The notes under the pieces: model-generated
The model's input: only the letters and a program-made list of their open reading frames with translations
Told to the model about the DNA's origin: nothing
The model's database searches: none
Position numbers and translations under genes: made by a program
Assembly (NCBI GenBank): GCA_965655095.1
Contig: OZ296655.1
Location: 31,310,001 to 31,374,000, forward strand
DNA length: 64,000 bases
Source: Haplodiscus bocki
Lineage: Eukaryota
Reading direction: 5' to 3'
Part shown: positions 11,401-36,641 of the stretch, in pieces
Numbering within the stretch: the first letter of the stretch is position 1
How the letters are laid out: every line of letters begins with the position of its first letter

Positions 11401-14400
11401 CTTCTCATCACAACAATCAGCAACAACTCCCGGCGATTGGGGAATTCCCGCGCTAGTGACCACCAGTTCTGCAATAAATTCATATTTCAACGTTCATCGT
11501 TTCGACTTCACTTCCCAAACAGTGGACCCATTTGCCTTTTTGATTGGACATATCGGAGAGATAATTTCTTTTATCAACGATAAACTATCTATTGTACACA
11601 TGACTCGCGTGGGGCTGTGCATGCAAGTGAAAATGGTGAAACCATTAAGAGGAGAGACGACCGAGCCTTTCTTTAACACAGTCCTTTTATCTTTGGCTCA
11701 AGTTGTTACGGAGGACGACGTCTACAATCTGATCAAATAATTACTCAGCTCAATGTATTTAGCACTGGTGGTTCGGGTTGGATTGTGGAGAAACTATTAC
11801 AATTTGATATCAAAACAAGCAGAACTCCTCGACTTGGTGGAAGTTCCTATATACCAACACCGCCAGATCTCTGTGCCCGGATTTCACGGCACTGCCTTTT
11901 AAACATTCGTAATTTGTATGACAACTATTGCTTTTTATACTCAGTAGCAGCTGCACTGTTTCCAGCTGAAAAAAAATCGTCAGCGACCCAGGAACTATAT
12001 TGACAACTTCCAGCAATTGATATTCGACCCGGCCGCAATGCCAATGAAACTTGTGAGTATACCGAAGTTTGAACGCGACAACATTTTGTCAATAAATGTG
12101 TACAGCTACGAAGATAGTTTTCTATCTTGTTGTTATCTGACCAAAAACAAGACTGTCGCTGGCAAAATTAAACTGCTGCTCTTAACAGAGGAAAACAACT
12201 ACCCTTACTGCTTAATCACTAATTTTCAAACATTCATCCATCGGGTGTGTCGCTCGAAAAAGAAGGCAGAAAAAAGGGCTAAAAACAAAAATTTGGCAGC
12301 AACTGCATGCAATTTGTGATCAAATCTGGATACAGTAGGCACGTCAAGCTTTGCAAATCTAACAGACCGCTGGATATTTCAATGCCCTCAAATGGTTCTG
12401 AAATTGAATTCTCAAACTGGCAAAATGCTTGTTCGTGGTATACGCAGACTTAGAGGCAATTACTGTTGCTGTAAACGAACCTCAAACTTCGAAGAACACC
12501 AAAAATATTGAGCTGCAGTATCCAGCAAGTTATGGAGCTGTGTTGGTAAAATCGAAAAGTAAGTTCCACTTGAATACCATTTTTTTGGTTTCTCAAAAGC
12601 CCATCATACATTTCTAATTTTTTTAGCCAATAAAGTTCAGTTCGAGTCCTTTTACCGTGGGCCGGACTGTATCGAACAGCTCATTACTTGCCTTCGAAAA
12701 TGGTTGGGGTGGAGTGAAAGTCAGCAACAAAATTATCGAGAGCTTTCATCAGTCATGTCCTGGAGTGAACGGCAACAGCTTTTGTCAACAGAAAACCCAA
12801 TTTGCTGTTTGTGCTAGGAACACGTTAGCCACAAAAAAGAAATGGTTATTCATCATTGTCACTATTCTGGTCAAATTTACGGGATCGCGCATTCTAGATG
12901 TAACCTAAAGGCCCGTCGCTCTAATTTTCTGCCCGTATTCTTTCACAACCTTGCACAATACGACGCGCACCACATCTTCAAAAAATTGCAACTCGAAGCC
13001 AATGAAAAGCTCTCTGCCATTTCCAGAACTGATGAAACGTATACCTCCTTCAGTATATCGGTAAAAACTGGTGAATACAAAAACAAATTCAACGTGAAAG
13101 TGCCTCTTTACAGCCACATTCGTGTTCTCGACAGTTTTCAATTTATGTCACAGGGTTTGGACAACTTGGCGAAAACCCTGCAACATGAAAACTTCAAACT
13201 CACGAGAAGCATTCGGCAACTTGAATGATGACGAGTTTATCAGTGTCACTCGAAAAGGCTTCTTTCCATATAATTATCTGGACAGTTTTCAAAAATTTAG
13301 TGCACCGTTTCCAGCTTTTGGCCCCGATTGGAAAAACACGCTGTCCGGAAAAATTGAAATTAGTGAAGAAGACTACACGCAAGCTTTAGCAATGTATAAT
13401 TTGTTTGCTTGTAAGGATTTTGCAGATTACCACGACCTGTATTTACGTATCGACGTCTTCATACTAGCGGATGTATTTGAAACGTTCAGGAACGTATGTC
13501 TTAAGGTTTACAATTTGGATCCTGCTCATTTCTTTTCAGCACAGAATCTCAGCTGGGATGCAATGTTGATTACAACTAGGGCAGAGATTGGGTTACTGAC
13601 AAACATTGAAATGTTGCTCTTTTGTGAAAGGGCAATTAGGGGTGGTGTCAATGGCATCGGAGCTTTGCGACACTTCAAAGCCAACAATCCCGACACAAAT
13701 GATTAGAATGCAAATGAACCTACAGTGTATGGAGCATTTTTCGACGTCACCTCGTTGTATGCCTGAACTAGGCAACAGTCTTTGCCACTGGAAGCCTACA
13801 CCTGGAGAGCAGATTTGACCATTGAAGATATTCTGAACGCTGACCCAATGGGTGAATTTGGCTTCTTTGTAGAAGTGGACTTAATTTGCCCGAAAGAGCT
13901 TCATCACTCTCACAATGATCCTCCCCTTGCGCCGGAAAAATTGGCAATTCAACCAGAATGGTTATCACCATATGCCAAGTCATTCAACAATCGACCTTCT
14001 GCTGTAGAAAAATTGGTAGAAACGCTACTTGGCAAAAGACTCTACGTGTGTCATTTCCGTAATTTGCAATTCCACCATCAGCAGGGACTCAAGGTTGATA
14101 AACTGCATAGGGTCCTACAATTCAAGCAGAGCAATTGGCTAGGCACGTACATAAACAAAAACACTGTGATGCGAAAACAAGCAACAAACGAATTTGAGAA
14201 AAACTTTTACAAATTGATGTCCAATGCTTGTTTTGGCAAAACTATGGAGAATCTTCGAAACCGAAGACTCATCAAATTTGTGCAAAATGAAACGCAGGCC
14301 AGCAGTCTCAGTTTTAAGCCAAATTACAAGTCGTTCAACATTATTAATGCGAATTTGGTATCGGTCGTAATGAACAACACCAAAAATTTGTGGAATAAGC

Positions 14401-17400
14401 CAACAACTGTAGGTGCGGCCATATTGGACTTCTCCAAGTTGACACTGTACGGATTCCATAATTAGGAGATGAAACCCCGATATGGAGATTCAATGACCGT
14501 TGTTTATAAAGATACAGATCTCTCCTCTATCGCGTGGAAACAAACAACCTCTACTCTGATATGGGCAACTTAAAGCACCTTTTTGACCTGTCTGATTATC
14601 CAACCAGTCATCCCTTGTTCGATGCTTCTAATAAAAAGGCGCCCCTTACCATGATGATGAATTGCAGGGAGAAGTGTTAGAAGAGGTGGTGTGCTTGTGA
14701 TCGAAACTTTACAGCATAAAGTTCAACGGTGGAGTCAAACAAAGTGCCAGGGGCGTTCAGAAAAGTGTAAAGAAGTCTCTTCATCATGAAGCCTACCGTG
14801 AAGGCTTGTTCAATAAAACAACAAGGCGGAAAGAAATGACCCAATTGCATTCTGAAAATCATCAGATTATCGTCAATAGACTGAGCAAAGTTGCCCTCAA
14901 CGCGTTTGACGACAAACGATATCTCTTGGGGGATGAAAGCCAATCTGTTGCATATGGCCATGTGCAGCTAAATCAATTTCGTGGTATGTTTTTACTCCTT
15001 TCTAAGCGTTTAAGCTGGTGTTGTTTTTCTCCTTTTCACCATTTAAGAAAAAGTTGTTTTTTTTTGTAGAGGTGCCGTCGTTCGAAAATGATTGTGCTGA
15101 CGATGATAACAGCACCATTACATCTAACTGTGACGTTGTTGATAAAGAATCTACCGCCTCTTGCTCTTCCTCCAATTCTGAATACACTGATGACGAAGAT
15201 AACTTTTCATCTACATGTACTGCTACGTTTTCATTATCTGCTGATGATCACGCACCAAATGATGATCAACAGCCTACTACTTCGACGGCAATTTGGTTGC
15301 CCACCACCACCTCCATTCGTTCTAAATTTAGTTGGTAACGTTTTATTCATGTTAAGAGAGTCCATGTAATATTTGGGCTGGTTATTTGAATGTTTCGCCG
15401 CAGGTCCTATTGATCCCGGGTTCATCTCTCGATCTGACGATGAATGTTCTACTGCTGATATTGTTGATTGGGACAACTTGACCGATGATATTATGGAGAC
15501 CGAAATCGAAAAAGCGTCCCATAGGAAAAGGCGTTGTCCCTTTATAGATGACGAAGCTGTCGAGAGTGAGGGCGGCGGTGGCGATGATGATGATAATGAA
15601 AACTTTCAATGATTTTGACCAGAACCAACCTGCGTTTCGCCAACCAACAATCAAGTAAGCTGCCCCAGTTATGCTCAGAATTGAGAATAAAAAATAGCCA
15701 GCCTGATGATTTCAATTTTTTAATTCATTCTGAGTTGGCAAAATACCATATAGTATTTATATGAGTTTATACTTCAGTTCCAATTTACAGTGAGTAGTAA
15801 AAAAGCTCACTACATCAACTTCATGTATTTGCCTCAAGGGCTGCAAAAGAGTATTCAGAGTAAGGTAATCAATCTCTTCCCCCTCCTCCATAACTGAAAT
15901 GCTCTTGTGGCTGGAGGATGTGAAGCTAATAAAATGTTGAAGAACGTTGTTTTCAATTAAATAAAGGGCCATATATAGACAATGCAAACCGCACAAGTTT
16001 GAGGTGGGAGTTTGAATGGGTGAGCCAATTTGATAAACCTCCAGCATTTGACTGCCAAAAAACTTCAAGCGTTTAAAAAAGTGCGTATATTGTCTGGTAG
16101 GCATACCCATGCAATCCCACACAAGCACCACGCTCTTGTGTTTAATGTATTTATAGCCTACAAATCCTTCTTGTTGTGGGTACTGATCATTATTTTTAGT
16201 AGTCTTCATGGGCACTGCTGCAACAATCAATAAAATCCAGTGCCGTCCCATGTCAATCGACCGGGCACTGTTTACAGTTTGAAATTGGAAAATCATGTCA
16301 CATAGGTTAGGATGATTATTGCGGTTGCCACCACTACTGATCTCGAGATGAAAGTGATCTGCTGACCACACACCACCCAATTTGGTCCACAATGCCGGAC
16401 AGTAGTCTCTGGCCATTGCATCCAAAGTAATGTTATCCATTTATAAGTGACTTTATCGAAATGTTGCGATGCGAATCAATGTAAATTTGACTGAATCGTT
16501 CGCCAATGAGAAAGAATTCGATTCCCGTAATCAAAGCTGCGTCAAATGCAAGTTTGAGTGTGATTCAGCTCCAGTCAATTCAGGAAAAAATGTAAAAGAC
16601 TTGCTGGCCTCCCGCGTAGAGGGTAGATCAAACACAAGTATGGAGTGATTGTCTTCAAAATCTTGCATCAAAATTCCTTTGCCACTCCTGTTGAAACCCA
16701 ATGCTGATATTGTGTTGTAATATAAGCGTGTACCGTTGCCGGTATCCATTGGTGTACCGGCAATGGTAACACCGTTGCCGCGTTGAATTTCAACCTCTTG
16801 TAGGCCAAAATTGCCGTACGAAAAGGGCGTTGAGGCTATCGTAGTTCACGAAAATGACCATACACATTGTCAAGCGGCGAATAGGCTCGGTGCCGAAAAT
16901 GTTTTCCTTGACGAAGCAATTTTGCCCAGGTTGAATGATAAAACTCTTGTTTAGGTTTTGAATAGACGGGTACACAGCTGGGCTCTTTGACAACGCTCGC
17001 TCAATGCTCATCTTCACAGAGTCGGAAAGCTCAACCTTGTTCATAAACAAGGAGGCCTCTTCAATAACAACACTATAGGGTGTCTGGTCTGCAGCTTTAA
17101 TAGCATCTGCGTCCAGGGTCCCAACTGCTTCAAGCGAACAATTGATCGGTGCTCTGTAGAGACGCAAGTGAAGTGTCACACCTGGCAGCAGGAATCGTTC
17201 ACATTCGAAAAAATCCACGTGCGGCGCCCCGTACAAACTAATGCTGTAGTTGCCTCTCTTCGTGAATGCATCTATGATTTTGTCCTTTTGTTCCGCATAC
17301 TGCTTGGCGTCACCTCTGTACCCGTAGCCTTGACATTGGGCCCGAGTCTGTTTGCCTTCAGTGTCTGAGCTCAATTCAGTTTCTACAAACGCTGCATGGT

Positions 17401-20400
17401 GGTAGTTGTTGTTGCTACTCGAAATTAGTTTGCCATTCAAAAATAGCTCGACATGCGAGAATAGCGAATGTAATAGATTGTTGCCATAAATGAGTACTGG
17501 ATCGGTTCCGGGCTTGACTAGTGTTTTACCATCGGGTGTGTACAATGAAACGTCCAAGGCAAGACAAATTCTATTAAGATCAATGCAGTTTTTATTCTCG
17601 GCAATCACAAAAAAGTCCAACTGACGTCCCCTACACCCAACGTGTGGAAAGACTCCTTGATCGCAGGCACCTTCATAATTGATGAGAACGTTTGGTCGTT
17701 CAAAAAAGTCTAGCGCACTCTGGGTCACTGGGTTTGCAATTTCGGTTGATTTACTGTACATGTTGTCGTCGTTGCTGTTGACGCCATTGGGTAGTCTTGT
17801 GTTTGTTAGTCTGTTTGTGTGTGTGTATGTGTGTGTGCTTAGCACATGCTCCCCTCTGTATTTCCTCTTCTTTTCCACCCTCCTTTGTCAATTGTCAAAG
17901 TTTATTGTGGATAAAATGTCGGCCCGACTTCTTTTGGCGGTGTTTCGCCTCGAAATGACCACATCATTAGCAGCTGCTGGTGATTTTGCTTGCCCTCCTC
18001 CTACTCGTCCTCGCCGACCAAAACCACTACCCTTGGCATGTACCTGCGCGGCGCGCAGCCCTGTCGTCCGCCCGCCGCCGCGCAAGCGTCCCGGCCGTTC
18101 GCCGCGACCGGTCCCTCGGCCGCCCGCGGCCGGCGAAGCGGTCATGTTGGTCAGTGTTTTATTTACAGACTTTTTGAAGGACTCTTTAAGGACTGTTCTT
18201 GGTCGCTTGCGACTGGCCGACGTCGACGACACTAGTTCGGGTACAATGGATGTGAAAAATTTTTTACCAAGCTCTTTGGCCACAGGCACAACGTACTTTT
18301 TCACGAGTGGCATGGCAACTCGACCCATTCGCATTGCAAATGCTCCAATTCCTCCGCCTGATCCAAACTGTCGTGCCGGTCCTCCATAAACTCTTGCTCC
18401 TCCTCCTCCTCGCATTGAAGACAGTTGAAGAATTTGATTGTCATAATGCGAATCCATCTCACTGCCATACTCGCTCCTTCTCAAGTTTGTTGAAGAATTG
18501 ATAACTTTTCTTTCTTTCACGACGACCACCACATTCTCCGGTTGGCTCCGAGTGTGCAACACTGATTTTCAAAACGCTTTTTCAAAAAATGCTGACAAAA
18601 CCTTTGTACGAGAGAGAGAGAGAGAGAGAAAGAATGGCAGACAACCATCTCAGCGGCGCATCATGCTAGTCGTTTTCGAAATTGTAAGGTGACGTTTGTC
18701 CTACCACGGCTCAAAAATGGTACTAGTTGGCCAGTTTCGTTTCGTAGTGAGATTGAAATTGACTGTACCGTAGTCTTGACGATGCGTTTCCACTGTAGAT
18801 TGGTAAACATTTGATAATGTAGGCTAGTGAAAGCTGCCGGCTGATGATTAACACTGACCCTTGTTGACAACGATTTACTAACGTATGGTTGATTTTGATG
18901 GTGAAAAGTTGGTAGTGGAATGGCCTTCAGCAATGCAGTTTGGCAGTAGCAAAAAATCTCATTTTGCACGAGGTCGCAATAGATCAGTATTGTGTGACAT
19001 CCCGCATTCAAGTCTGTGGGATACTGACCAGCACTTTTTGTTGGGAAAGCATCATGTCTACCGCCACCATTGCCATCTTCACTACGGTCTTTCACATTTG
19101 AAAGGCTGCTGCTGCAATCGAGTAGCGTTGTCGTACCCTAAATGTTTTGCAAATCGGTCGTCTGCGCTTTGAGGATTAGGCGGTCATCGTTACTTCCACT
19201 AAATTTGACTCGTAGTGTTTGTATTTGAGCATCAATTTTTCAAGATATTGGGAATTGCTTGCTGCTGCTGGCCAACTTGTTGCGAAATACTTGCTTGCAT
19301 ATTGAATCCATTATAAGATCAATGCTCGAGTAGATTCCATGTTCTATATTTTCTACAGCTGGCGGCGCAAATGTTTCGCCCAAGTACTTATTCGGCGTGT
19401 ACATTGTAACCATTCCGGGACGGCGATGCCGTGGTGGTGGCCGTGCATCTTCTTCTTGGCAATTTATAAATTGGTAGGAAAAGTTCCCTTGAAGAACATT
19501 TTGTACAAGGCTCGGCCAAGACATTTCCACAATTGCCACCTCCCAATCGCCCATCAGTTGTATTGGATGTGGCAACAGAGTGGTAAAGTTTGCGAGAGTG
19601 TTGTCGGGAAACGTGGACATGGACGCGTTTGAAACTAAATCTATATTAAATTGCTCCTGGTGAGACATTTGTAGTTGTGTGTGTGTGTTTGCAAATCAAT
19701 TAAAGACGACAGCGACTAGTGTTGTGGGGATTCGCCGTTATTTTTGTTGTTAATGTGCTTAAAGTGAACCAATTCGGGTTCGTAAAATTTGCCTTGGATA
19801 ACTTGTTTGTTGCAATCGCTTATAGAATACGTTGGAGGGTTGAGTGTCTGGATGGCCGGAAAGGTGAAAGCTTCTTCGGTAAATTGTATGCGATAGCCAC
19901 GATGAAAATTGTCAATTTTTCGTCTGACTGACCTTCTGGCCAATTTTAAATTTTGGTTCTTGTACCTTGTTAGTTGCCTGTAGTGATATCGAGAATTGTA
20001 CGTCTTTAACATCCACATTTTTGGGAGCAATATGTGTAACACGATTTATTCTACCATTGATTATGCTGACAAACTTTGGTAGTTGATCCAAGTAAATGTC
20101 GGTATTGTTTTCATGAAGGTACTCGAATATTAATGCGTTAAGCGAACGGATAGTGCGCTCTGCGAAGACCGACTTTGCTTCACTGCAAGTTGACTAGATT
20201 GTGATGGAGCGTTCTCGGCAATATTCGGCAAACTCCCCAGCGAATTCTCTACCCTTAACCACCCAAATCTTTTCCGGTTTAGCGGGTACCTTTTCCTTCC
20301 CGCCACAAAATTTGGGTTGCATCTGCTGTCTGCCAGCTTGGCAACATGTAATAATTGCGTTTAGACCATCAGCGCACGACTTTGCACTTTTGCCTTTGAT

Positions 20401-23400
20401 CGGATATACCCAGAGAAACCTACTCTACGTGTCTACGGCCACAAAGAGGTATCCAACACCATCATTCACGGATGACAAATTTTGCATGTCCGCCAAATCA
20501 TCAGACCAAATTTCGTTCAATCGATAGCTTTGCACCTTGAGTCTAATGAAACGCCTTCTCGTTTGTTTAAATTTGGTATATGTTTCGCTACTTGCTAAGT
20601 ACTTGTCAACATCACTGTAGCTGCAGCGCGATACTGTTTTCAACGATTGGCGACTACCAAAGGCCGCTGGGTTGTCGTAATTTGTGTATATGCTATGTAG
20701 TTTGCTAAATGTTACCGTGTCTTTGTTTGCAGGCACAAGTCTTCTCGTGTGTGAACATTTGGTACATAAAAAGTCTTCTCGTACGAAAACGAAAACATTT
20801 ACCAAGCCGCAGCAAGAAAAATGTACCCAACCACAAACATGACACCAAATAAATAGTTTTGTTCGAGAACCCTTCCCCAAGTCTTCCAAACAGTTACCGC
20901 ATGTGTAGGGTGGTTTATTGTTTGCTGGTGCCTTCTTTTTGCGCATACTAGTGTCAATGCGACGTGTGTTGTTGTTGTTGTGCAGACTGAACAACTAGCT
21001 AGTGGCTTGATTCTTATGAAAATGAATTGGAGTCTCTTGTTTGAGCGGATACTACACAATAACCTACTAGTACATCTTGAACCATTTGTACTGGTCTGTA
21101 GTATTTTCGTCGGGTGCACTACGTTTCATGTCGTTTGCAACTTGCTTTGCATTGGCGTTTGCTATTAGGTATTCGGGTACCCTCAACTGACGAACAAGGT
21201 CGAGACAACCTTCACTTAGCCTCTTAGTTGGTACTTGCAAGTCGGACAGGAATGCAAAAATTGTCAAACCAGTGTCTCTATGATAGAGGTGCAGCCTTCC
21301 TGAATTTGAATCAAGGGTTACTGAATCACTGCCTTGTATTTTGCGAAGTATTTGACGAGCTCGTTCCACTTCTCCAGCACTCAATCCACAAGGTAAAAGT
21401 TCTAAGATCACCTCTGCTGAAATGTTGCGAGCCCGATCAGCACAGTCATTATGTTCATTGGAAGACGAGAAGGAAAATGGTGGCGTGTCTTTCAATTCTG
21501 CCCTTTTCTTTTTGTTTGCCTCAAATCTTGTCTGAAGGTTTAGTTGAGCCACCGCCGCAGATGTACCCGCCGCAATATTCTCGTTTGTTTTCAAGTGAAA
21601 ATCTAGGATTGAGCCGTTTTGAGATGGTTTCAAGTGTGTTGGTGAGGACTGCTGTTGTTGTACTAAACTGGTGCACTGATTGTGTGGCGATGCTGTGAGG
21701 ACGTTGTTTTGGATGTGTTGTTTAGTTGCCAATAGTGATGTATATTAATCTCGAGTTATTAATGCAAATTCTTTCACGCTACTGCTTGAGCTCATGGTGC
21801 TTCTTCAAATGATTTGAAATTGACGGTTGGATTAATGCCAAAAGCTTCAAGCCTTCATCTGACAAAAGTAGCCGACGTTTGAGGGCTATTTTTATACCCC
21901 TTCGGTACAAGCGCTCTATTTGCCTTTTATTTCGATCAAGTTTTTTCTTTGTAACGCTACTGTCCATTTTTACAAGACCGTGTACCACGTTGCAAATGCA
22001 ATCACAGAAAAATTTAATGTCATTGTTGGGACAATATGAAAGTAAGCTCTTCTTTACAATTGGTTTGAATGAATGGAACAAATGAAGCACATAATAGTCT
22101 CGTAGGCTCATTTTGTACAGTTTCTGACGTTTTGCTGGTTGCTATGAAAAAGGTTGATGGTCTGGCGCCAGAACAGTTGGTTGAAAATTTCAGTTTTGGG
22201 TCTGCTCGCGAATCCAAGTCAATCAACAAATGACCATAAGGTTTGAGTGTACCTTTTTTATATGTCTCCAGCAAAAGCTTTCTTTGACCCATTTGCCTAC
22301 CGAGAGTCGATATTGGCTCAACATCCTTCGGACTGTTGAAGAGAATCAGCTGACTAATATTTAAATGAATTGTTTTTAAAATTTTTGGTTTGCTGATAGA
22401 GATTGTGCTTCATTGTAATCAAATGAACATTTCGATGGCGTCTCGAAACTACCACCTCGAGAAATTTTTGACTGGCTTGTTGATAAAAGTCATTGATAAC
22501 AACCATTGTCCGTAGCTTTTGGGCTTCACACTTGTCAATAGCTGACCAATTTATTCCCTGGTAAAACTCAATTGAATTCTTTTCGCCCATCATTCTAATA
22601 CTCAGGGACTCATATTTCGGTTGAAAATAGTTATGAAAGTACAAAAATTTATCGAATGGTGGTTTGAAAACATTCCTTTGATTGACCAACATCTCTGCAA
22701 CCAGTTGCGTTTTGCCACAACCAGTCGGCCCCACAACGGAAATGAAAGTGTGGTTCGGTATCAATGCGTTTGTTCATTGACTAGTTGATGGGGGACGAAT
22801 AATACAGCCGACGCTCGCTGATAGAATAGCAAGTACACCTGACGATGTACTTGTGTTTGCCGGAGCAAGAATCAAGTAACCGATGCAAAACAGAATTACA
22901 GCGAAAATGGTTGAATAATGTAAGAGTAGGAAAGTAAACGCTCTATCACACAGTAATTGTTTTGTGCAACAACAACCACAATCGATAACAAATGGCGGTT
23001 TCTCAATATTAGTGTCATCAAATATCAGTTCTCTGACATTGGGGCCATCAGCCAAATCTAACGTAGTATCTTGAATAGTTGATTCGGAAACGATAGAGGA
23101 ATCACCATCATTTGTCATTGCAACTTTGGTAAATGTTTATTGTATGCAAATTAGTTTATAGGAATTGAATAACTTGATGGAAACCAAAGGTATATGTTGA
23201 AAGTGGAATCGAAACTGTAAATTGGGGAGAGCGTGCGACTGTCATTGAGATTGATTTTTAAACAAAATGGTTAGAAGCTATACTTCCGATAACCTTTGTT
23301 TGAAAAAAGTTTTAATAGGAACCGATACACCAGCCCAGTCAAATGACCCAGTAGCATGCTGTTAACAAAGATGGGCTTCTGTGACAACGCATAGACGTAA

Positions 23401-26400
23401 CCGAGCCCAACCTCATAATTGCGTTTCATAAAACCAAATGCGTCGTGAAATTTGGCATGCAAAAGAAACAATTCAAAATAGTTTTAAAATTTTTCTAAAC
23501 CGCTGTTGCCCGATCCAATAAGACCACCATATATTGCCAATTCATTAATTTCTAGAAGACTGATGTCTTTGTTTAGACTATAGCACACTGCTAAGAATGC
23601 ATTTTTTTGGCGTGTTTTTCGGAAATATATAGTTTACAAGGTTGAAATTATTCTCCAGAGCTTCACTACTTAGAAGGTGATGATGATGCATTCTATCTGT
23701 GACTCTCGCAAGGAAAAACCAACTGATTATCAAGAAAAAGTCTATTCAAATGGCTGGATAAATTGAGCATTTTCATCAATATATGAAAACAAATTTGTCT
23801 GATAATTGTTGATTGTGTTTCCTTGATTTGGCAAATCGAGGCATTCAAAACACTGGCACTGAGCGTTGGAGTAGCCCAAGTCGATTGACAGCGTGTTATT
23901 ACGATGTGATGCGTTGATGTTGTCAAAACCACGTTTCAACAGGTCAATGAAGAAGTCAATCACGGAATCTTTGAAGGGTGCATCAGAGCGTTGCAGCTCC
24001 ACCAGCTTTTTGCTAAGATAGCTCAGCTTTTCCAGATCAAAACCATCGTCAAACTCTGCGTAACTGGTACGATGGAACTCCCATGTTAGATTGAATTTAC
24101 ATTCCAGTCCGTTAGTTGTTGTGGCATTCATCATTTACTTGATCTTTTCACCATGAATGAAGAGGTTGTTTGTTGACAACGTAACTTCGGTTTTGAAGCA
24201 AATCTCGAGGTAAGTGATTGCATAGAGCTTAGCTACGCAGTTTTTGATTTTCAATATTTTGTCTTTTTCGGTTAGAATATCCCCAATTGTTTCTTTGATG
24301 AACTTTTCTGCTCCGACAAAAGATGTAGCAGAATGTGATAGTGATCGTTTTGTAATTGAGAGCATACGTCTTCTGCTCCACCAATCTTGCCGACTATGTG
24401 TTTTCTCACCGTATATTCACAACTTGTCGCCCTAAGCAGTTGTTTCAAAAAGCTACATAGGCTTTTGGGGAATATAATTTCGCTGTGATCTTGGCATTTT
24501 TTCTTCGATACTTTAGGAGCAGGTGGCTCAGAAACATCACCAGCTGCGACTATCTCTTCGTGTGTGTAGAAGACAAGGTATTGAAAGTGAGAAAGAACTT
24601 CACGGAAGACGCTTGTCATGGCGAAGATTAGACGTATTATGACCAACGTCTAAAGCCAGATATCTTTATCTTATCGTTGTTACGTAAGTAGAATTTTCCT
24701 TGATAACGTGTTCGGACGTTTCCGTTGTTATGGTTTTTCCACTGTAAAATGTACTTCTAGCACAGACCGTCCGTTGAAAAGTCGCGAGGTGGCTTTGAGT
24801 TGCAACTGTTGCGTTCGTATACGATGTTCGGACGGTTTGTGCCAGAAGGACATTGGAGCGAAGTCCGAATTAGACTATTTGTATTATTATAACTTTTAAA
24901 GAATGCCATAATTCGTGTTCTACAAACTGTTACCTCCTTATGACTTTACTTGGTTACTCTACCTTCTTATAATGGCCAATATATTGATGGAAATGGAAAT
25001 AAAGGTTAGACGTATCAAATTGAATTTTTGAAAAAAAATGATTTCTTTTATTTCCATTTTTTGGAATACATGGAGGCCCTATCTATACACTGAGGTCTTC
25101 ATGTGTGATAAAGGGTGAAGCAACATGTTAGTTCAACGTTTGCAGTCGATATTTCTGTTTATTTAGCTGTCAAGATAGAGAAAATTTATTGCGTGCCATC
25201 TACGGTGCGAACACCCCCCCCTATCCTTACTAATTTTGTGCATTCCCAAAAGAGCAGTTATGACATATAGTACAAAATACTACAACGAATACAGAAATAC
25301 AAACCTTTTCGAGCCTTAATGCTGAATGATTTAGCCGATTTAAAGGGCAAAAATATATATTCAAGTATGAATTTTATGTAACAATTTTTTTGAACCTGAC
25401 ATTTAAAAAAATTTTTCTTTATGGTACGTTTGAAGCTAAAGTTCGGCGTGTTTCTCAAAATTTTCGTCAATCTCAGTACTTAGTTCTTAACCGATAGGTA
25501 ATTTTTATCGACACTCGCCGAGTCTTTCATAGATTGATCATGATCGACTTCGAATTTGCATATTAACGAGGACCAAAATAAACTGACGTTTTTTAAAGTT
25601 GGAAAAATTGAGCAAAAATTTTCATGACGTCTTCCAACCCAGTACTTGGACTCTTGATCGCCTTGTCAAGATCTTAGATTTCTTGGCGAGATCTTGCCAA
25701 AAAAAGAGGCATTTGCATTGATTTCTTGAAACGACGAACAACATTCCGAACACTGGGGATGAAAACTCAAATGAATTATTTAGTTGTCGATTTCAACTAC
25801 ATCGCCTCACTCTTTCAGTTTCTGTTTTTTCTCTTCTTCGGTCAAAGGTTTAATCTCTTCTGTCGATTCAGAGAAGTTTGAGTGACTAGTTTTGGCTGCG
25901 TGTGCCTCTGCTTCAATTGTAGACCTCAGCAGACGGCCACAGTCCTCACACTTTAGAGACATGGCCACTTCCCCACCTGAGGGCGCAGCTGCTGCTTCAG
26001 GGGGCGAGGATGAATCAGATGGCGCTATTCCTACACTGCCCGGCGCGGAACCCAATACATGCCCTTGTGACAGTGCTGCCCCACCCTGAGATGCACCGCC
26101 TATTCCCGCATCAGGGTTACTGATAATCCTAGAGATAAGAGAAGATATTAGAGTTGCGACTACGAATCTTTATTCGATTCAAGGAATTTTACGAAGTCCT
26201 TCCAGAGACTGCTGATGTATTCAGAACTCTTAAAGTCATTATTGCCAGTCAGAAAATATGGAAGGAAGGTTGTTTTTGATTATTTGATTAGCAGGGATGC
26301 AAATGGAGAGCTGGTTACTTCATGAACAACGAATAAATACAGTAAGTGACGGGAAAATTAATCGTCAAGACGCATGTACGGTTTTTTGGGTATTTCAAAT

Positions 26401-27551
26401 TTTTGTCCATTAGTCGGTGCTTTCGTATAAAAAGCCGAATTCTTGTAATAACTCTCAAATTTATTTGAGATCACGAGTTTTCCACTTTTTTTCCTGGTGT
26501 TGTATTTTACAGCATACCAGTAGTCAAAAACAAGCACAGGTCACAGACACGTTCTCAAAAACAACAAAATGGTCCTCCCCCTACGAAGTTTCTCGGTAAT
26601 TTGACATAAAACATAAGCATCACGGATCTTAGTCATTGGGCGCCAAGAATTTAGAACTGTGAAACAAAAATTGGAATTTTCAATTTATGACACCGATACC
26701 CGGAGAAAGAACATGAATTGAGGGAATCCAGCAAAAATTCCCCTTGCGTCCATCATTCAAATTGCCGAAAATTTTGGAGCGTAGCAAATTTGAAAATTTT
26801 CGTCGCTTTGAATAGTTTGCACATTTCGGCACTTTCGAGACTCAACATTTTCGACGCACGCGATGAATGGTAACCATTTTAAAAAAGCTGAAAATAGGAT
26901 GCAAATTCAAATTTGAATATCAATTAGCACAAGTGCTTGAAATGGACAGAAAAAAAAGCAAAATGTGGCGTCCGCTTTTGCTTGGGGAAGCGAAGAGTAA
27001 ATAAAAATAATGAGAGTACATAAGATTTGTACTTCACTTTACCGCTCAGCCACGCTCTATCACGGCGCGTTTGCGAAATGCGAAGAAAAAACAGTCACCC
27101 AAGGCGGATAAGATTTCAGAAAATTTTGGGATAACCATAAAATCTCCCTTCACCTTTATTCCGTTTTCCCACCAATTGAGACGAATGGATTGGAAATGTC
27201 CCGGGGTATACACTTTTAGGAATGTCCCGGGCTTTATACGAACTCGACAGAAGGGCTCCGCCATTTTGGATCTGTTCACCGCTTGTTTAGAATTAGATGA
27301 CACTAACCAGTTGACAACTGTTTCAATTTCTTTGCTTCCAGTCGCTTTGAGTCCAGCCTGGCTGAAAACAAACCCATTATAACCCACTTCTGGAGACTGT
27401 TTTGACAATCTGCCCAATAAAGACAGAAGCATATTGAGCAGCATTATTTGTTCAATGAAAAAGTTTTACAACTAATTGACAAAGTGATTGGCTATACTAA
27501 CATTTGTTCGTTAGTGAACCCCATGTCCACGAGGGCCGCCGCCATTGCCAT
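8497..27551 (-). CDS. UBXN1: UBX domain-containing protein 1 (UBA - C2H2 - coiled coil - UBX), 7 exons: 27551-27502, 27361-27308, 26128-25811, 10437-10318, 10193-10122, 9619-9421, 8724-8497
   Basis: All junctions are GT-AG and in phase. UBA LVDMGF...ATGSKEIETVVNWI; zinc finger LKCEDCGRLLRS...HAAKTSHSNFSES; coiled coil EERRREKEADRIAREKVKAEIARDR; UBX TRIQIRF...LMTSFPKKVF...LGLVPSAVL. An alternative upstream ATG exists at 27569. Confidence 0.92.
9033..9184. repeat. Short degenerate tandem repeat (3 units, core TTTATGGCGGA...CGAG)
   Basis: tttatggcgga recurs at ~9039, ~9090 and ~9148, within a UBXN1 intron. Confidence 0.6.
9801..10082 (-). mobile_element. HINE-like family A copy in a UBXN1 intron
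   Basis: Subterminal IR ACACTTGCGCA...TGCGCAAGTGT. tRNA-like GCAGTCAGTAGAGC...GGTTCGAGCC at ~9912-9980. Confidence 0.6.
10594..10708 (+). repeat. E1 left terminal inverted repeat
   Basis: Reverse complement of 25125-25234 with ~7 substitutions and a G13 vs G8 tract. Confidence 0.95.
12559..12626 (+). other. Spliceosomal intron 1 in E1 pPolB (68 nt, phase 1)
   Basis: GTAAGT donor, CTAAT branch-like site, TTTTTTTAG acceptor. Removal joins YGAVLVKSK to TNKVQFESFYRGPDC in frame. Confidence 0.88.
14984..15069 (+). other. Spliceosomal intron 2 in E1 pPolB (86 nt, phase 1)
   Basis: GTATGT donor and poly-T GTAG acceptor. Joins AYGHVQLNQFR to EVPSFENDCADDD in frame. Confidence 0.75.
15331..15403 (+). 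other. Spliceosomal intron 3 in the E1 pPolB tail (donor at 15331, or 15335 if one frameshift is allowed)
   Basis: GTTGGT...CCGCAG joins SKF|SPIDPGF, co-linear with E2 SSF|SGPGPGY. Confidence 0.6.
15757..16440 (-). CDS. E1 adenain-like cysteine protease (ORF still open)
   Basis: Catalytic pattern HW (RHWILL), VWDCMG, Q...CG (IQTPTSNLCGLHC). Homologous to E2 33965-34594. Confidence 0.88.
   Translation of the reverse strand: MDNITLDAMARDYCPALWTKLGGVWSADHFHLEISSGGNRNNHPNLCDMIFQFQTVNSARSIDMGRHWILLIVAAVPMKTTKNNDQYPQQEGFVGYKYIKHKSVVLVWDCMGMPTRQYTHFFKRLKFFGSQMLEVYQIGSPIQTPTSNLCGLHCLYMALYLIENNVLQHFISFTSSSHKSISVMEEGEEIDYLTLNTLLQPLRQIHEVDVVSFFTTHCKLELKYKLI
16433..17787 (-). pseudogene. E1 double jelly-roll major capsid protein (PY/hexon-like), frameshifted
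   Basis: SALDFFERP, IDLNRICL, NNLLHSLFSHVELFLNGKLIS, RFLLPGV, VFDL. Closely similar to the E2 MCP. Confidence 0.88.
17888..18457 (-). CDS. E1 basic Gly/Arg/Lys-rich core-like protein
   Basis: QFGSGGGIGAFAMRMGRVAMPLVKK amphipathic motif, located between penton and MCP as in Polintons. Very basic C-terminus. Homolog in E2. Confidence 0.7.
   Translation of the reverse strand: MDSHYDNQILQLSSMRGGGGARVYGGPARQFGSGGGIGAFAMRMGRVAMPLVKKYVVPVAKELGKKFFTSIVPELVSSTSASRKRPRTVLKESFKKSVNKTLTNMTASPAAGGRGTGRGERPGRLRGGGRTTGLRAAQVHAKGSGFGRRGRVGGGQAKSPAAANDVVISRRNTAKRSRADILSTINFDN
18661..19668 (-). pseudogene. E1 minor capsid protein (penton), disrupted
   Basis: LVSNASMSTFPDNTLANFTTLLP...GDWEVAIVE N-terminus; IYCDLVQ...LLKAI...LRNETGQLVPF...VTLQFRK C-terminus. 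Confidence 0.85.
19716..20994 (-). pseudogene. E1 retroviral-type (rve/c-int) integrase with N-terminal PHD finger; disrupted
   Basis: PHD CGNC...WCHVCGWVHFSC...CTKC, then WSDDLADM, YLFVAVDT*SRF, WV(V)KGREF (second catalytic Asp mutated), AERTIR, GKFYEPEL. Two in-frame stops and a frameshift. Confidence 0.92.
21067..21732 (-). CDS. E1 conserved Polinton hypothetical protein
   Basis: Homologous to E2 38929-39387 (VERARQIL, NSGRL, FLxDLQ, ANxxAK, C-terminal KWxxxY). Confidence 0.7.
   Translation of the reverse strand: MATKQHIQNNVLTASPHNQCTSLVQQQQSSPTHLKPSQNGSILDFHLKTNENIAAGTSAAVAQLNLQTRFEANKKKRAELKDTPPFSFSSSNEHNDCADRARNISAEVILELLPCGLSAGEVERARQILRKIQGSDSVTLDSNSGRLHLYHRDTGLTIFAFLSDLQVPTKRLSEGCLDLVRQLRVPEYLIANANAKQVANDMKRSAPDENTTDQYKWFKMY
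21779..22111 (-). CDS. E1 small basic Polinton protein downstream of the ATPase
   Basis: IKFFCDCICNVVHGLVKM...KRRLL. Homologous to E2 39532-39837. Confidence 0.7.
   Translation of the reverse strand: MSLRDYYVLHLFHSFKPIVKKSLLSYCPNNDIKFFCDCICNVVHGLVKMDSSVTKKKLDRNKRQIERLYRRGIKIALKRRLLLSDEGLKLLALIQPSISNHLKKHHELKQ
22080..22764 (-). pseudogene. E1 A32/FtsK-like packaging ATPase, frameshifted
   Basis: Walker A GPTGCGKT, Walker B-like MVVIND, RRHRN, PYGHLLIDL. Confidence 0.9.
22774..23118 (-). CDS. E1 small predicted two-TM membrane protein
   Basis: Acidic N-terminus, CGCCC, and two hydrophobic helices (FAVILFCIGYLIL; GVLAILSASVGCII) ending in PP. Located upstream of the ATPase. Confidence 0.65.
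   Translation of the reverse strand: MTNDGDSSIVSESTIQDTTLDLADGPNVRELIFDDTNIEKPPFVIDCGCCCTKQLLCDRAFTFLLLHYSTIFAVILFCIGYLILAPANTSTSSGVLAILSASVGCIIRPPSTSQ
23150..23690 (-). pseudogene. E1 conserved hypothetical Gly-rich/hydrophobic protein, frameshifted (boundaries approximate)
   Basis: KNAFLAVCYSL...GGLIGSGNS...FHDAFGFMKRNYEVG...KPIF...LGHL is shared with E2 ~40440-40900. Confidence 0.65.
23742..24619 (-). pseudogene. E1 terminal ORF with HUH-like motif and CxCxxC
   Basis: MTSVFREV...YTVRKH...DHYHILLH / SFVGAE...WEF...FKDSVIDF...DLGYSNAQCQCFEC. One frameshift and one stop. Co-linear with E2 41782-40950. Confidence 0.7.
25125..25234 (-). repeat. E1 right terminal inverted repeat
   Basis: Matches the left TIR and is followed directly by the TSD TTTGTG. 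Confidence 0.95.
26790..27030. repeat. Dispersed repeat also present at ~41885-42070
   Basis: Shared blocks cgctttgaatagtttgc, cacaagt(g/a)cttgaaatg and gcttgggg(g)aagcga. Confidence 0.7.
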
Positions 27552-27708
27552 TTTCTGAAATTTCGACATTTACGGAAAATATGATCCAGTGTTTCATTGT
27601 TGAATTTGAAAGCTTTTTAACCGTTCTAGTTGATCTATTTTGGGAGAAACATTTTTTTTAATAAACCATTGAAAAACCATTCAATCTCATTTGAATATGG
27701 GCACCCAA

Positions 27709-27743
27709 AAACTTCCCACCATGGGTCCAAACTTCCCACAATG
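27709..27743. promoter_or_regulatory. Tandem AAACTTCCCAC(C/A)ATG motifs upstream of UBXN1
   Basis: Two direct copies 160-190 bp upstream of the ATG. They resemble the ZNF143/Staf element; this is resemblance only. Confidence 0.25.
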
Positions 27744-30730
27744 TTTAAACGCTGAGGCACAGACGTCGTACGCAAACAAAAAATAAACTTCAAATTTTGC
27801 GAATGGCCAATATTTCAATCAAACATCAGCTCACAGTTGAGAATTGAAATGGTTACACATCAACGAACATTTAAAAGACATTTAAAGCTATGATCGGAGA
27901 TGTGATTGACACTTTTAGAAATACTACACCAGCTGTCAATCAAAAAGTTTGTTCGAAAAAGTCTTATTTCAAGACAAGAATCAGTCACAGTGTCTGATAA
28001 TCGAAAAGTTGATCTGCCAATCTTTTTGTAGATTCGTCATTTTGCTACCCAGTGTTTAAAACCACCAACATGGTAAACAACGCGACAATGAATAACACTA
28101 TAAGTCCTAAAAAGTTGATGAAAACATTTCGAGCTCTCAAAACGCTAATATTAGTCAACAAGACGTCAAAACTGCTTCAAAAATTCTTATCTCACTTGTC
28201 AATCATGAGGATTTGTGAATCGAAAAGAAAGTTGCATAATTTCGGTCAAATGAGTGTAAACACAACTTTCATAACAGGAATCTAAATTGGTCATTTTCAC
28301 AATTAGGAATTCAGTGGTGTTAATTTTGATGACTGATAGACGGTAAGTGCGGACTTGAAAAAAGTTCCGATGAACTGGTTTACTAACATCAACCATTCTC
28401 AGAACTCAGAAAATTTTTATATGTGACGTTTTTTTGGGGACACCTAATACACTGCCCACGCTGTCTCATTCAAAACATTGTTATGTGAATCACCTTTCAG
28501 AACGCTGTTGTTCATTTCTAGACCAATGTTCAAAAATCTGCACATTTCAGAACGCCAAAATAAACAAGAACCAGCCAAGATGTTTCAAAAAAGGTCGTTT
28601 TTGACCGCTTACACTAATGACTAGACTCTCCGATGACGTCACAAAATGCAGGTTTTAGACAAGATTAAAAAAAAACTATATACGTAGTATTGTAAGCGGG
28701 GGGGGGTGTTTAAATGCATTTTTGATTCCTTTGCAGTTTTTGCACAATTATGAAGGTTTTGCCTAACATTGACCAAAAAAATTAGTTTGACAGCTTACTG
28801 ATAGGTGAAGCCACCAAACTCGAACCCAAAATAGAATTGACATCTTGCTGTCAAGAGATTATACGATGATACCAATTCCGTACAATTCATCTAAACCCGT
28901 CACGAAAACTAACAAAAATGACACCATAGGCCTAATTCCATAGATAATATAAAACGCATTGAACGACCGTACTGTATTCTCGTACTAAAACTTTACCAAA
29001 TAAATTCGAACTTTAAGAATTCAATTATAATGTCCAAATATTAAATACCTCAGCTGAATATCTTATTCGGAAATCTAAAAATGACTGTTACCCAGAGGGA
29101 ACCAAAAACCTCAAAAAAATTTTTCGAAATAAAAATGTCCAGAGGGTTTTCCTTTTTTTAATTTATATTTTTTGTTGATTTATTTTTTGAAATCATGAAA
29201 CGTGGTTTAAGGATTTCTGTCGTGTGTCAAAAATAATGTCGAAAAGATTTAGATGTTCAGGGAAATCCTCTCTCCTATCAATAGCTTGGTTCGACTATCA
29301 TGTTATCAAGTGAGACTTGTGGCAAGATTTTCAAAACTCAGCGGTTCCTGAATAATCATCTCAGAACCAAACATAAGCAGAATATAATCGAAACAGCTGT
29401 CTCCGATCAGTGTGGAAAAAGCGCTATCCAATTCAACAAAAGTTATAATCTTCTCAAACATTTGAAAAATCAACACGAATCGCCGAACGTTCACAGGTGT
29501 TTTTTCTGCCCTAAATTCTTTGCAACGGAAAAGTCTCTCTATGACCATGAGGTAGCCGAACATAGACTGCCTGAGAAGAATGTCCCTCGGAAACGAACCG
29601 GGAATCCCGCTCAAGTCGAAGCTACAACTGTGGCTGTGAATGAGATTCAAAACGCATTGTTAGAAGTTATCCAAGGAAGAAATTTCTATCATTGATCCGT
29701 TCAGTTATTTAGTTATGCACCAACAGAGCATAATGGATTTCATCGATACCGAACTTCAAAAAGTAGCCAATATGAAAATTGGCCTTACTACTGCCGTCGA
29801 GCTCGTGAAACCATTGAACAATGATAGAGTTACGGCATTCTTCAATTCTTTCCTCGCTAGAATTGCCAACAACATCACAGATGAAAACCTTGACCGCGCA
29901 GATCAACTAATTTCGAGGCTCAATGTCTTTGCTTCTTGTGGCTCTGGATGGGTGACACAAAGCCTACAATCTGTGGAAGTGAAAACAGCAACTTGCCAAA
30001 CACTCAACGGCTCGTCTTACATAGAAACGCCTAATATATTGAAAGGTCTTTCGAAAAGTCTTTTGAACGTCAAAAACAAGAACGACCACTTCTGTTTTTT
30101 ATATTGTGTTGCAGCCGCATTATTTGCTTTCACCGGTCGCGCCTTCTCTCCGAAATCTCATAAGGAAAATGTGAAGCAGCTGAAATTCAAATCAAGTCGA
30201 ATGCCGATGACCTCATCCAGTATACAGCCATTCGAGAAAAGCAACAATGTCTCTATTAATATATATCAACTGGAGAATGGGAAATTGGTGGCTGTGTTTT
30301 ACAGCAAGAACAAAAACTCAAAGCGTCGCGTCAATTTACTTCGCCTGGTCAGTGGTTCCAAAACGCATTACTGTCTCATCAAAAACTTCTCGAATTTGCT
30401 TCAGAGGCTGATTCGATCAGAGAAGAAACGAAGAACTGGCTCCAAGTCGAGGCTCTGTCCAAACTGTTTCCAGTCAATAATAAAGAGAAACTACATGAAT
30501 CACATAAAATTTTGTGAGTCAAATGCTCCGCTTGAAACTCGAATGCCTATTTCTTCGCCGACTATCGAATTTGTGAATTGGCAGAAAACTCAAAAAGTTC
30601 CCTTTATTGTGTAGCGGATCTCGAAGCAATCGATGTCCGTTCTGTGGATGCGCGGAGAATTGGTTCCTACACAAAAGAAATTGAAAGACACTATACTGCA
30701 GTTTCGGTGCCATCCTCGTGGACAAAAGAA

Positions 30731-30855
30731 GTTAGTTTTCTTGCACGCTTGTTAAAAACCCAAACATGAAACTACCTCATCTGTCTAACAATATACCCGC
30801 GTTTTCCAGGTAACAATTTTTGCTTTTTGAGGAATTAACCACTTTTTCTGTTTAG
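30731..30855 (+). other. Spliceosomal intron 1 in E2 pPolB (125 nt, phase 1)
   Basis: GTTAGT donor (also used by host UBXN1 introns) and TTTTTCTGTTTAG acceptor. Joins FGAILVDKR to SNAVVKEQIYKGEDC at the same codon position as E1 intron 1. Confidence 0.88.
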
Positions 30856-33217
30856 GTAACGCTGTGGTCAAAGAGCAGATCTACAAAGGCGAAGACTGTA
30901 TTAGTTGTCTAATGGATTTACTCCGCTCTTGGTTAGCTTGGTGTTATACTGAAAAACGAAAGATCAATCAACTGAAATTTTCTACGGACGACAGAAACAT
31001 TCTGATGGAAAGAGATGAAAATGTTTGCTGTTTATGTGGGAAAAATTGTTGAGCACAACCTTAGAGTAATCCATCATTGTCACTTAACTGGCGAAAATAT
31101 TGGGGTTGCCCTTTCTAAATGCAACCTTCGTGCCAAGACAACGCGATTCTTGCCGGTTTTCTTCCACAATTTGTCGCGATATGACGCTCATCATATTATA
31201 AAATGTTTGAAACTCAACGATGGAGAAAAGCATTCAGCCATTGCAAAAAATGATGAAACCTATATTTCTTTTTCTTTGGATAAACCGATGGAACGTTTCG
31301 AAAGCAAACTTGGACAAAACGTTGTGCTTTATCATTCACTGCGGTTTTTGGACAGCTTCCAGTTTATGTCGCAAATTTTGAACTCGCTAGCAAAAACCGT
31401 CGACAAAAATGATTTCAAGTTGCCTAGAGCTGGCTTTCCAAACATCGGAGATGATCTTTTCCAGATGCTGACTAGGAAAGGCTTTTTCCCGTACAACTAT
31501 CTCGACTCTTTTGAGAAGGTTAATGAGCCCTTTCCATCTCATGGGCCTTGGTGGTACAACACTTTAACAAAAGCGATTGAAATCACAAGAGAACAGAATA
31601 ACTTTGCCTTGGAAGTTTATAACGCCTTCAATTGTAAAAACATACAATACCATGATATCTACCTATGGACTGATGTGTTTCTTCTTGGTGACATTTTCCA
31701 GAAGTTCAGAGAGGTCTGTATGCAAGTGTACAAGTTGGATCCAGCACACTTTTACTCAGCGCCCAGCCTAAGTTGGGATGCAATGCTTATTACTACTGGT
31801 GTGAAATTGGAACTTTTGCAGGACATTGACCAGCTTTTGTTCTTTGACAAAGGAATTCGCGGTGGAATAAATGGTTTGGGTGCTCGTCGTCAGTTTGAAG
31901 CAAATAACAAGTATCTTGAAAAATTCAATTCAAAAGAGGAGTCTACTTTTGGTGCTTTTTTTGACGTAACATCACTTTATGCTGGGACAATGCAAAAGGA
32001 AATGCCTGTTAGAGGATATCAACGGTGCACTGAAGTCAGTCTGGCGCAAATTCTTGCCACACCCTCGGACTCTAGCTTTGGCTACTTTGTTGAAGTGGAC
32101 CTTGCGTATCCGCCAGCAATTCACGACATCCATAATGATCTTCCATTGGCACCCGAAAAGATGAAAATTCCGACAGAATGGAGATCTGATTATGCCTAAT
32201 CCTTCGGGTTAAATGTTGGTTCAACGACTGAAAAGCTTGTGGAAACTCTGCTAGGCAAGCATCACTACGTTTGTCATTACGAAAACTTGAAATTTTATGT
32301 ACATCATGGATTAGACGTCACGAAACTCCATCGGGTAGTAAAACTCCAGCAATCAAAATGGCTTGGAGCCTACATATCAAAAAACACCATAATGCGTAAG
32401 CAAGCTTCTAATGATTTCGAGAAAAACTTCTACAAATTGATGTCGAACGCTTGTTTGGCGAGACAATGGAGAATTTACGTAGACGTGGTATGCTGCGATT
32501 CGTTACAACCGAAGCGCAAGCTGAAGCCTTCATCCAACGAGCTACGTTCAAAAACTTCAAAATTATCAGCAAAGATCTTGTATCTGTTTCCCTTCGGGTT
32601 TCCTCGGTAGTTTGGAGCAAACCAACGCCAGTGGGTGCAACTATTTTGGATCTCTCGAAATTCTCCTTGTACAAGTTTCATTACGAAGAGATGCTTCCTC
32701 GTTATGGATCAGATCGTTTGAAAATAATTTATAAAGACACTGACTCCTTACTCTATAGAATAAAAACTGCCGATTTATATGAAGACATATCAACTTTCAA
32801 GCATCTCCTCGACCTTTCGGATTATCCGGAAGACCACTTCCTTCACGACAAAACAAACAAGAAAGTACCACTCACGATGACTGATGAGCTTAATGGAAAA
32901 GTCTCGAAGGAAGTAGTTTGCCCAAGACCGAAACTATATAACATTGATTATCTGGGTGGAACTAAACAAAGCGCTAAGGGTGTTCAGAAATCCGTCAAAA
33001 AAACTTTACATCACAGTGTCTTCAAGAACTGGTTACTGTCAAAATCTGTTCTACGTAAAGAAATGATGCAACTAAGATCGGTTGGGCATCAAATTGTGGT
33101 CAATGCTGTGAACAAAGTTGCTCTCAGTTGTTTTGACGACAAACGCTACATCTTAGACGATACTGTGTCTTCTCTAGCCTACGGACATTACTCTCGGCAA
33201 TCCGAAGCGAATTTCCC

Positions 33218-33301
33218 GTAAATTACAAAATGACAAGGAAAATTCTCAGCACACATAAAATCAAGTCTAGACAAATGTGCGAACCGTTCTTTTTCGTTTA
33301 G
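33218..33301 (+). other. Probable intron 2 in E2 pPolB (needs a 1-nt indel to be in phase)
   Basis: GTAAAT...TTTTTCGTTTAG just after AYGH, followed by an acidic/Ser-rich exon as in E1. Confidence 0.5.
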
Positions 33302-33499
33302 TTGATATTGACTCTATTTCTGAATCCAGTTCGTCTGAGTTTAATGATGATGATGATGCTGGTGATGTTGATAGTGACAGTGTTATTTCTACAACAAGCG
33401 ATCGAGACAAGGAGGCTCAAACCAGTTCTAACGTTAGCAGTCTCTTTGTCCACATTGACGGACCCTTGGCAAAGGCATGGAAAGCTGCCAGTTCTTTTT

Positions 33500-33625
33500 G
33501 TGAGTAACTTCTAAACATTTTAAGAGGGCAAAACATCATTTTTACTCGACACATTTCTCTCTGGAGTGTTCAAAAATTGATTTCAAATGAAGGTTCATTT
33601 TCGGGTAAACTCTTTTCATTTTTAG
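33500..33625 (+). other. Spliceosomal intron 3 in the E2 pPolB tail (126 nt, phase 1)
   Basis: GTGAGT donor and CTTTTCATTTTTAG acceptor. Joins AASSF|SGPGPGY in frame. Confidence 0.72.
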
Positions 33626-35950: not shown

Positions 35951-35979
35951 TGTGGATGTTGCCGGAGCCTCTTTTCATC

Positions 35980-36493: not shown

Positions 36494-36641
36494 TTGAGAG
36501 AGCAGCAGCAGTAGCCTGCAACACTTTGTCCCACTGTTTTATTGAACTGTTTTGCAAAGGAATGATGATTGGTACCGACTTTTTCTCGGTCGTTGAAGAC
36601 GAAGATGATAATGATGAAATTCAGTTTAGTAGTCTTTTGTC

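Follow-up and report, generated by a model that had tools for sequence, protein, structure and literature searches.

Two Polinton/Maverick elements, E1 and E2, lie 3.4 kb apart in a 64,000-nucleotide stretch of the Haplodiscus bocki genome (contig OZ296655.1, forward-strand positions 31,310,001 to 31,374,000; hereafter the window), and in both the gene for the family B DNA polymerase primed by a protein (pPolB) is interrupted. Is the interruption a spliceosomal intron that these virus-like elements inherited, or damage that followed insertion? The first-pass annotation had favored an inherited intron, older than the split between E1 and E2. Here we report that a GT–AG segment occupies one and the same pPolB codon in at least eight element families of this genome, that its splice signals are kept in all of them, and that three further families lack it exactly. 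Excision by the host is very likely, as judged from sequence and its conservation.

The pPolB junction in E1 and E2

Direct reading of the window confirmed the coordinates, borders and frame of both segments; each is in phase 1, splitting its codon behind the first base:

12559..12626, plus strand: E1 intron-like segment, 68 nt, GTAAGT...CTAAT...TAG, phase 1
30731..30855, plus strand: E2 intron-like segment, 125 nt, GTTAGT...TTTAG, phase 1, codon identical to E1

The natural protein P0006, which is continuous here, was used as an anchor. The surplus length in E1 and E2 equals exactly the segment, and the junction falls on the same codon in these two divergent elements, 11 codons N-terminal to the glycine of Y[K/R]G. 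Removal of the segment restores co-linearity with P0006 and with three intronless families of the same genome, G1–G3. The interiors of the two segments are mutually unrelated (z = -0.4 against shuffles), and chance would set a donor-like hexamer and a YAG at two given positions with a frequency of ~1.5e-5 in this window. The U2-type donor, pyrimidine tract and YAG acceptor resemble host introns. In the host gene that contains E1, a candidate UBXN1 according to the annotation, the six donors read are GTTAGT in three cases (27501, 27307 and 10317), as in E2, and GTGAGG, GTTAAC and GTAGAA; the acceptor is TTTCAG in 5/6, and a GTAAGT donor occurs in a second host gene. In E1, a CTAAT stands ~15 nt upstream of the T-run. 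Within the E2 segment, positions 30803–30815 duplicate the real acceptor together with the exon start (CAG/GTAAC). This copy is retained in most members of family F2, to which E2 belongs, and has a counterpart in family F2b; it could serve as an alternative acceptor that runs into a stop or as a recursive site, or be the scar of a duplication.

The junction lies inside the polymerase fold. In the structure model of P0012 (mean pLDDT 83), which matches phi29 polymerase (E=4e-15), junction residue 477 sits in the turn between exonuclease strands 461–474 and 479–487, with ExoI N-terminal and ExoII C-terminal to it, so a working enzyme needs both exons. An endonuclease-VII-like domain (PF02945) follows ~40 residues past the junction. 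The terminal-protein (TP) and vOTU domains were unconfirmed in the fold search, whose listed matches were all polymerases. Both window copies of pPolB are decayed, with additional frameshifts and stops (4 tblastn pieces each). The window alone is therefore not decisive, and other copies of the families decide.

The segment across element families

The assembly searched comprises 1.5 Gb. All copy numbers are minima, since 150 of 627–860 candidates were scored in the protein searches. Two of these searches, with 750 and 627 candidates, spanned the junction and gave split as well as unsplit matches; 120 additional places were then fetched to resolve families. Left out of the counts were L028 (a copy of L027), repeats among L089–L115, L254 (no anchor pair), L053 and L054 (no protein anchor, though GT–AG is present in both) and the decayed, F7-like L193. 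At least eight families, with 132 scored copies, carry a segment at this codon, with the following lengths:

F1 (the family of E1): 68–69 nt
F2 (the family of E2): 125 nt
F2b: 113 nt
F3: 108 nt
F4: 117–118 nt
F5: 108 nt
F6: 111 nt
F7: 102 nt

The modal lengths of F3, F5, F6 and F7 are divisible by three, and all scored copies of these families have in-frame stops; such independent cases are too few to exceed chance.

The segment is present in 27/27 distinct F1 copies (62–71 nt; GT in 24, AG in 26) and in all 30 copies fetched from 40 scored E2-like matches, comprising 27 of F2 (120–125 nt) and three of F2b (112–113 nt). Across the 132 copies, strict anchors gave GT in 119 and AG in 120, rising to 121 and 127 once anchor slips were corrected, and the losses match exonic decay (2–12% per base). 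All families combine a GT[A/T][A/G]GT donor (GTAAGT, GTTAGT, GTTGGT) with a T-rich [C/T]AG acceptor (TTTAG, TTCAG). The interiors fall into seven unrelated types: 27 of 28 family pairs are without similarity (z <= 2.7), the exception being F2/F2b (z=11.9). A branch-point-like YTRAY occurs in the last 45 nt of most F1, F2, F3 and F4 copies and in no F2b, F5, F6 or F7 copy. Conservation of GT, AG and the pyrimidine tract across copies had been named in the annotation as a test of its proposal, and it holds in all eight families. Fixation of the segment in every copy examined likewise bears out the view that it is intron-like, that it arose before E1 and E2 diverged, and that decay after insertion did not produce it.

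Two of 11 F3 copies, 99.8% identical, are broken only by the segment, which separates 478 and 798 open codons. The ratio of nonsynonymous to synonymous divergence (dN/dS) indicated purifying selection on either exon, at 0.13/1.39 and 0.10/1.37 between F2 and F3 and 0.18/1.45 and 0.12/2.08 between F4 and F5; over both exons it is near 0.1 between families, or dS is saturated, with exon 2 of F1, F2 and G covered only in part. An in-frame stop lies within the segment in 85/85 scored F2–F7 copies and in 13/24 scored F1 copies, which excludes read-through for most families, and the first Met of exon 2 varies from codon 18 to 51. Given the split exonuclease, the in-frame stops and the unconserved exon-2 Met, host splicing is the likely route to an active enzyme.

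No intronless copy of an F family was found: a query restricted to exon 2 recovered the 27 F1 loci already known and a single weak F3 match, and 40 additional loci yielded none either. Used as queries, the E1 and E2 segments matched only family copies (27/27 and 29/29); no introner signature, meaning near-identical copies elsewhere, was seen for these two of the eight types, the only ones searched. A group I or II self-splicing intron was also considered and rejected: segments of 68–125 nt are too short, and Rfam gave 0 matches in window 10500–42000.

Outside the assembly, the independent metagenome contig L256, 96% identical to F3, carries the same intron. Database proteins P0001–P0005 and P0007 begin only downstream of the junction, and P0003, P0007 and P0147 have an F-rich start followed by S-A at the junction codon, as expected from a TCAG acceptor translated in frame. 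The best identity of P0002 and P0007 in this genome is 63% and 59%, so other hosts are probably their source. These open reading frame (ORF) starts suggest that Polintons of other hosts may carry the same intron. The junction is uninterrupted in P0008, P0010, P0015 and P0012 and likewise in distant proteins from corals and insects. The Logan proteins P0006 and P0152 are continuous as well, though nested with intron-bearing F6 and P0007; their continuity may reflect either derivation from a spliced message or another exact loss of the segment. A viral-contig scan with P0006 found no relative.

Intronless families and the history of the probable intron

Families G1–G3 are exactly without the segment in ~74 copies (36, plus 38/40 in a second set, in which 2 had an anchor slip), and together with several database proteins they are exactly co-linear across the junction. 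The annotation had spoken of an intron-bearing lineage; this stands for the eight families and fails for the lineage as a whole, since G1–G3 read straight through. In the combined tree, G1–G3 group with F1 (support 100/99) and form a clade (95/92), and a single clade of all intron-bearing rows is rejected (approximately unbiased test, p=0.0028). Separate exon trees built from unbroken frames agree, with 100/98 and 99/95 for F1+G and 90/87 and 83/76 for G, and in the exon-1 tree the continuous P0008/P0010/P0015 branch outside F+G (97/98). With G1–G3 nested among intron-bearing families, one gain and one clean loss fits best. Within-family identity of the intronless families (median 87–95%, maximum 99–100%) shows them to have been active over the same time span as the intron-bearing ones.

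Polymerase modules are exchanged between co-resident families, as read from their sequences. The capsid and ATPase of G3 (L203) are 89% and 85% identical to those of F3 (L199, L211); its polymerase groups with F1, G1 and G2, and its exon 2 is only 54% like that of F3. The idea that loss of the intron goes with transcription of the poxvirus type was considered as well and rejected, as no TAAATG start context occurs at any listed ORF of F1, F2, F3, G2 or G3. In the same families, a CAGTTG lies ~5–30 nt before several structural-block starts (L196, L199, L201, L203, L205); it could act as an initiator or E-box, or as an acceptor used in leader splicing.

We consider it probable that the segment is a true spliceosomal intron, spliced by the host, gained once and lost once in the ancestor of G1–G3. 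The gain would fall in the common ancestor of the families, before F1 separated from F2–F7. The element would be transcribed in the host nucleus, where the host spliceosome would excise the segment and allow the polymerase to be made; an unspliced message would end at or near the segment. The intron would then have been carried passively, with selection acting on the splice signals only. The single exact loss would most likely have proceeded through recombination with a reverse-transcribed spliced message, cDNA-mediated intron loss being part of general intron biology. Several points weigh against this history. Splicing is predicted from DNA, with no RNA read seen across the junction; the four sequencing runs listed as matches are none of them recorded as RNA, and their listed contigs over 11600–31500 extend over host introns, as expected for DNA, which speaks neither for nor against splicing; YTRAY is missing from the last 45 nt of the F2b, F5, F6 and F7 segments; and P0006, like P0002–P0005 and P0007, is known here from protein alone. 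The exon-2 and combined trees do not resolve the deepest branching, support for the G1–G3 clade lies between 83/76 and 95/92, LG+G4 with no mixture model was the setting for every tree, and module exchange leaves room for transfer of the intron into F1.

That last point underlies an unlikely alternative, in which the intronless condition of G1–G3 is ancestral and the F1 intron is a second gain or a short conversion tract from an F2–F7 relative, its separate arrival perhaps aided by the endonuclease-VII-like domain just downstream. Such a history would draw on the demonstrated module swapping, on the shorter F1 segment (68–69 nt vs 102–125 nt), on the open base of the exon-2 tree and on the proximity of PF02945. 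It has to contend with F1 residues flanking the segment that are G-like and unlike F2–F7, with the position of the continuous outgroup in the exon-1 tree, and with the presence of the endonuclease domain in intronless and distant pPolBs too. Slightly less probable still is that a real intron has been kept as a switch, retention yielding a ~480-residue stand-alone protein with zinc fingers and the putative TP and vOTU regions, or silencing the polymerase by tissue as the third intron of the P-element does. No second intron was seen in the element, whose remaining core genes are single ORFs in young copies, and this one has outlasted synonymous-site saturation in eight families. Exon 1 also covers the region where PMC11161782, in the portions available, puts TP and vOTU, and the same paper reports that TP and polymerase have split repeatedly. 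A specific form of the switch, which we rate a shade lower again, would have the unspliced message encode a zinc-finger/TP/vOTU protein and the spliced one the polymerase, with the intronless sisters as escapees by way of a reverse-transcribed message; if true, it would be an adenovirus-like primer/polymerase split achieved through host splicing. Yet the cut falls inside the exonuclease sheet, off any domain border; no interior motif is common to the families; and stops are expected by chance in AT-rich 100-nt segments. Intronless families active in the same period weaken essential gating, and with it the gating by tissue that the annotation had suggested, as does G3, which pairs an intronless polymerase with the F3-like capsid and ATPase described above. 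A regulatory role of the intron is possible but unsupported.

It is highly improbable that the segment is never spliced, with the halves acting as separate genes or the F families being non-autonomous users of an intronless polymerase in trans. Intronless helper families do share the genome, and the first of the cautions above applies here in favor of this reading. GT/AG, pyrimidine tract and phase are nonetheless conserved over seven unrelated interiors, both halves are under purifying selection, the exonuclease motifs are split and exon 2 has no conserved first Met. Hardly credible is an origin by post-insertion decay, independent introner insertions or assembly errors. Both window copies are indeed decayed, and the accessible text of PMC11957031 reports introners, likewise spliceosomal, within Maverick-like (Polinton-like) elements of dinoflagellates. 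Those introners are young, multi-copy and mostly post-integration, whereas the E1 and E2 segments are older and confined to their families, as the query searches showed. Post-insertion decay and assembly error are refuted by fixation in the families and by the same intron in the independent contig L256, though the first gain could still go back to an ancient introner; the empty Rfam search of 10500–42000 also stands against this group of explanations.

The elements, their surroundings and known systems

The remaining features of the two elements and of the host gene around E1 are as follows:

10594..25234, no strand: Polinton/Maverick E1 (family F1), 14.6 kb, complete, decayed, within a host-gene intron
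11132..12558, plus strand: E1 pPolB exon 1, with C2H2 fingers, putative TP and vOTU region and ExoI motif; decayed
12627..14970, plus strand: E1 pPolB exon 2, with exonuclease remainder, endonuclease-VII-like insert and palm; decayed, end approximate
15757..24649, minus strand: E1 opposing gene block, with protease, putative major and minor capsid, integrase, packaging ATPase and small ORFs
28683..41782, no strand: Polinton E2 (family F2), left end kept, ~630 bp of the right end including the inverted repeat gone
29300..30730, plus strand: E2 pPolB exon 1, decayed
30856..33221, plus strand: E2 pPolB exon 2, decayed; PF03175 E=7e-10
33965..41821, minus strand: E2 opposing gene block, gene order as E1; PF00770 on 33968–34672
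8600..27548, minus strand: host gene, presumably UBXN1; intron 3 contains E1, lower limit provisional

E1 has terminal inverted repeats (10596–10711 and 25122–25232, 90% alike), its ends are of AGTAGT type, and its target duplication of 6 bp reads TTTGTG (10588–10593 and 25235–25240). The limits of E2 were set against a family copy in which the two ends and a target duplication of 6 bp are present. The domain names of E1 exon 1 follow the P0012 model and the order TP-vOTU-EXO-PALM given for pPolB in the consulted part of PMC11161782; exon 2 is supported by PF03175 matches and tblastn of P0006. The genes of the E1 block are decayed, each being a single ORF in young relatives, from which the names were transferred: integrase (rve, E=1.3e-7 on F3 relative L199, marginally below the curated cut-off), packaging ATPase (Pox_A32, E=1e-4 on F3 copies), cysteine protease (Ulp1-type, E=0.002 on F3 copies) and a double-jelly-roll lead for the capsid. 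The minor capsid label is our assumption from gene order. Homologous decayed integrase ORFs occur in both E1 and E2, and PF00770 exceeds its cut-off on E2. The capsid candidate had Atlas feature matches of 0.96–0.98, including double-jelly-roll and virophage capsid clusters, with recognition under the strong threshold; it gave no match in Pfam or in a phage collection. Absence of introns from core genes is seen in G1–G3 and in the other core genes, and is lacking only in the pPolB of F1–F7; it is a descriptive trait, not a defining one, and the elements here are variant Polintons.

The accessible text of PMC8097293 describes intact vertebrate Mavericks without introns and relays the 'no introns' statement of the 2006 Polinton paper, and 10.1101/2022.07.12.499685 reports, in the part consulted, intronless Maverick core genes alongside captured cargo genes with introns. 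An HNH/endonuclease-VII-like domain type is described for nematode and oomycete pPolB2 in the available text of 10.1101/2023.08.22.554363. Compared with the vertebrate and nematode Polintons ('adintoviruses') of PMC8097293, 10.1101/2022.07.12.499685 and PMC8502044, as far as these sources were available, the present elements have the same inverted repeats and 6-bp duplication, the same pPolB facing a protease, candidate capsid, integrase and ATPase block, and the same endonuclease insert; their core is intronless, whereas here one core gene is interrupted in eight families and uninterrupted in three. No inherited spliceosomal intron in a Polinton pPolB was found in the literature, with subscription papers, Repbase reports and supplements outside the search; the accessible portions of PMC8502044, PMC12220804, PMC6431247, PMC11296320, PMC8504770, 10.1101/2022.07.28.501842 and 10.64898/2026.07.28.741278 describe none. 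New relative to these sources are a probable single old intron in a Polinton pPolB and its likely clean loss in a sister clade.

The intron offers a comparative case of probable gain, long retention and clean loss in one virus-like lineage, with both states represented in a single genome. Confirmed splicing would imply host-nuclear transcription and a pPolB independent of a cytoplasmic helper. The case also explains why ORF-based surveys class such polymerases as broken or truncated, the calls of P0001–P0005 and P0007 starting past the intron. Ordinary RNA data would allow a test here of neutral against regulatory roles for an intron carried in the enzyme of a selfish element.

Chlorovirus DNA polymerase, of the RNA/DNA-primed class, offers a parallel. 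The available part of PMC7019647 describes, in PBCV-1 a185r, a short spliceosomal intron in a viral family B polymerase gene at one position, with lengths of 101 and 86 nt, absent from the related groups Pbi and SAG. That intron is as conserved as the exons, unlike the interiors here, which have diverged beyond recognition, and its carriers are giant algal viruses rather than integrating elements of an animal host (PMC7019647, same portion).

Adenovirus E2B produces spliced pTP/Pol messages, and the Drosophila P-element has a regulated third intron. Both are, as a lead only, possible analogs, nuclear DNA elements whose enzyme for replication or transposition needs host splicing; splicing there is regulated or alternative, whereas here splicing itself is predicted.

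E1 and E2 belong to different families; the first lies within a host gene, and the second immediately upstream of that gene. Directly beyond the truncated right end of E2, positions 42240–42964 hold 5–6 diverged copies of a 117–133 nt unit. The host genes Sec8 (exocyst), Tom22 and LSM (54524–58916, 51807–52199) are single long ORFs, so genes poor in introns coexist in this host with genes that bear them. An acoel host is likely: the only named match of the exocyst gene is from the acoel Symsagittifera roscoffensis (38%), and the nearest named pPolB is from Convolutriloba macropyga.

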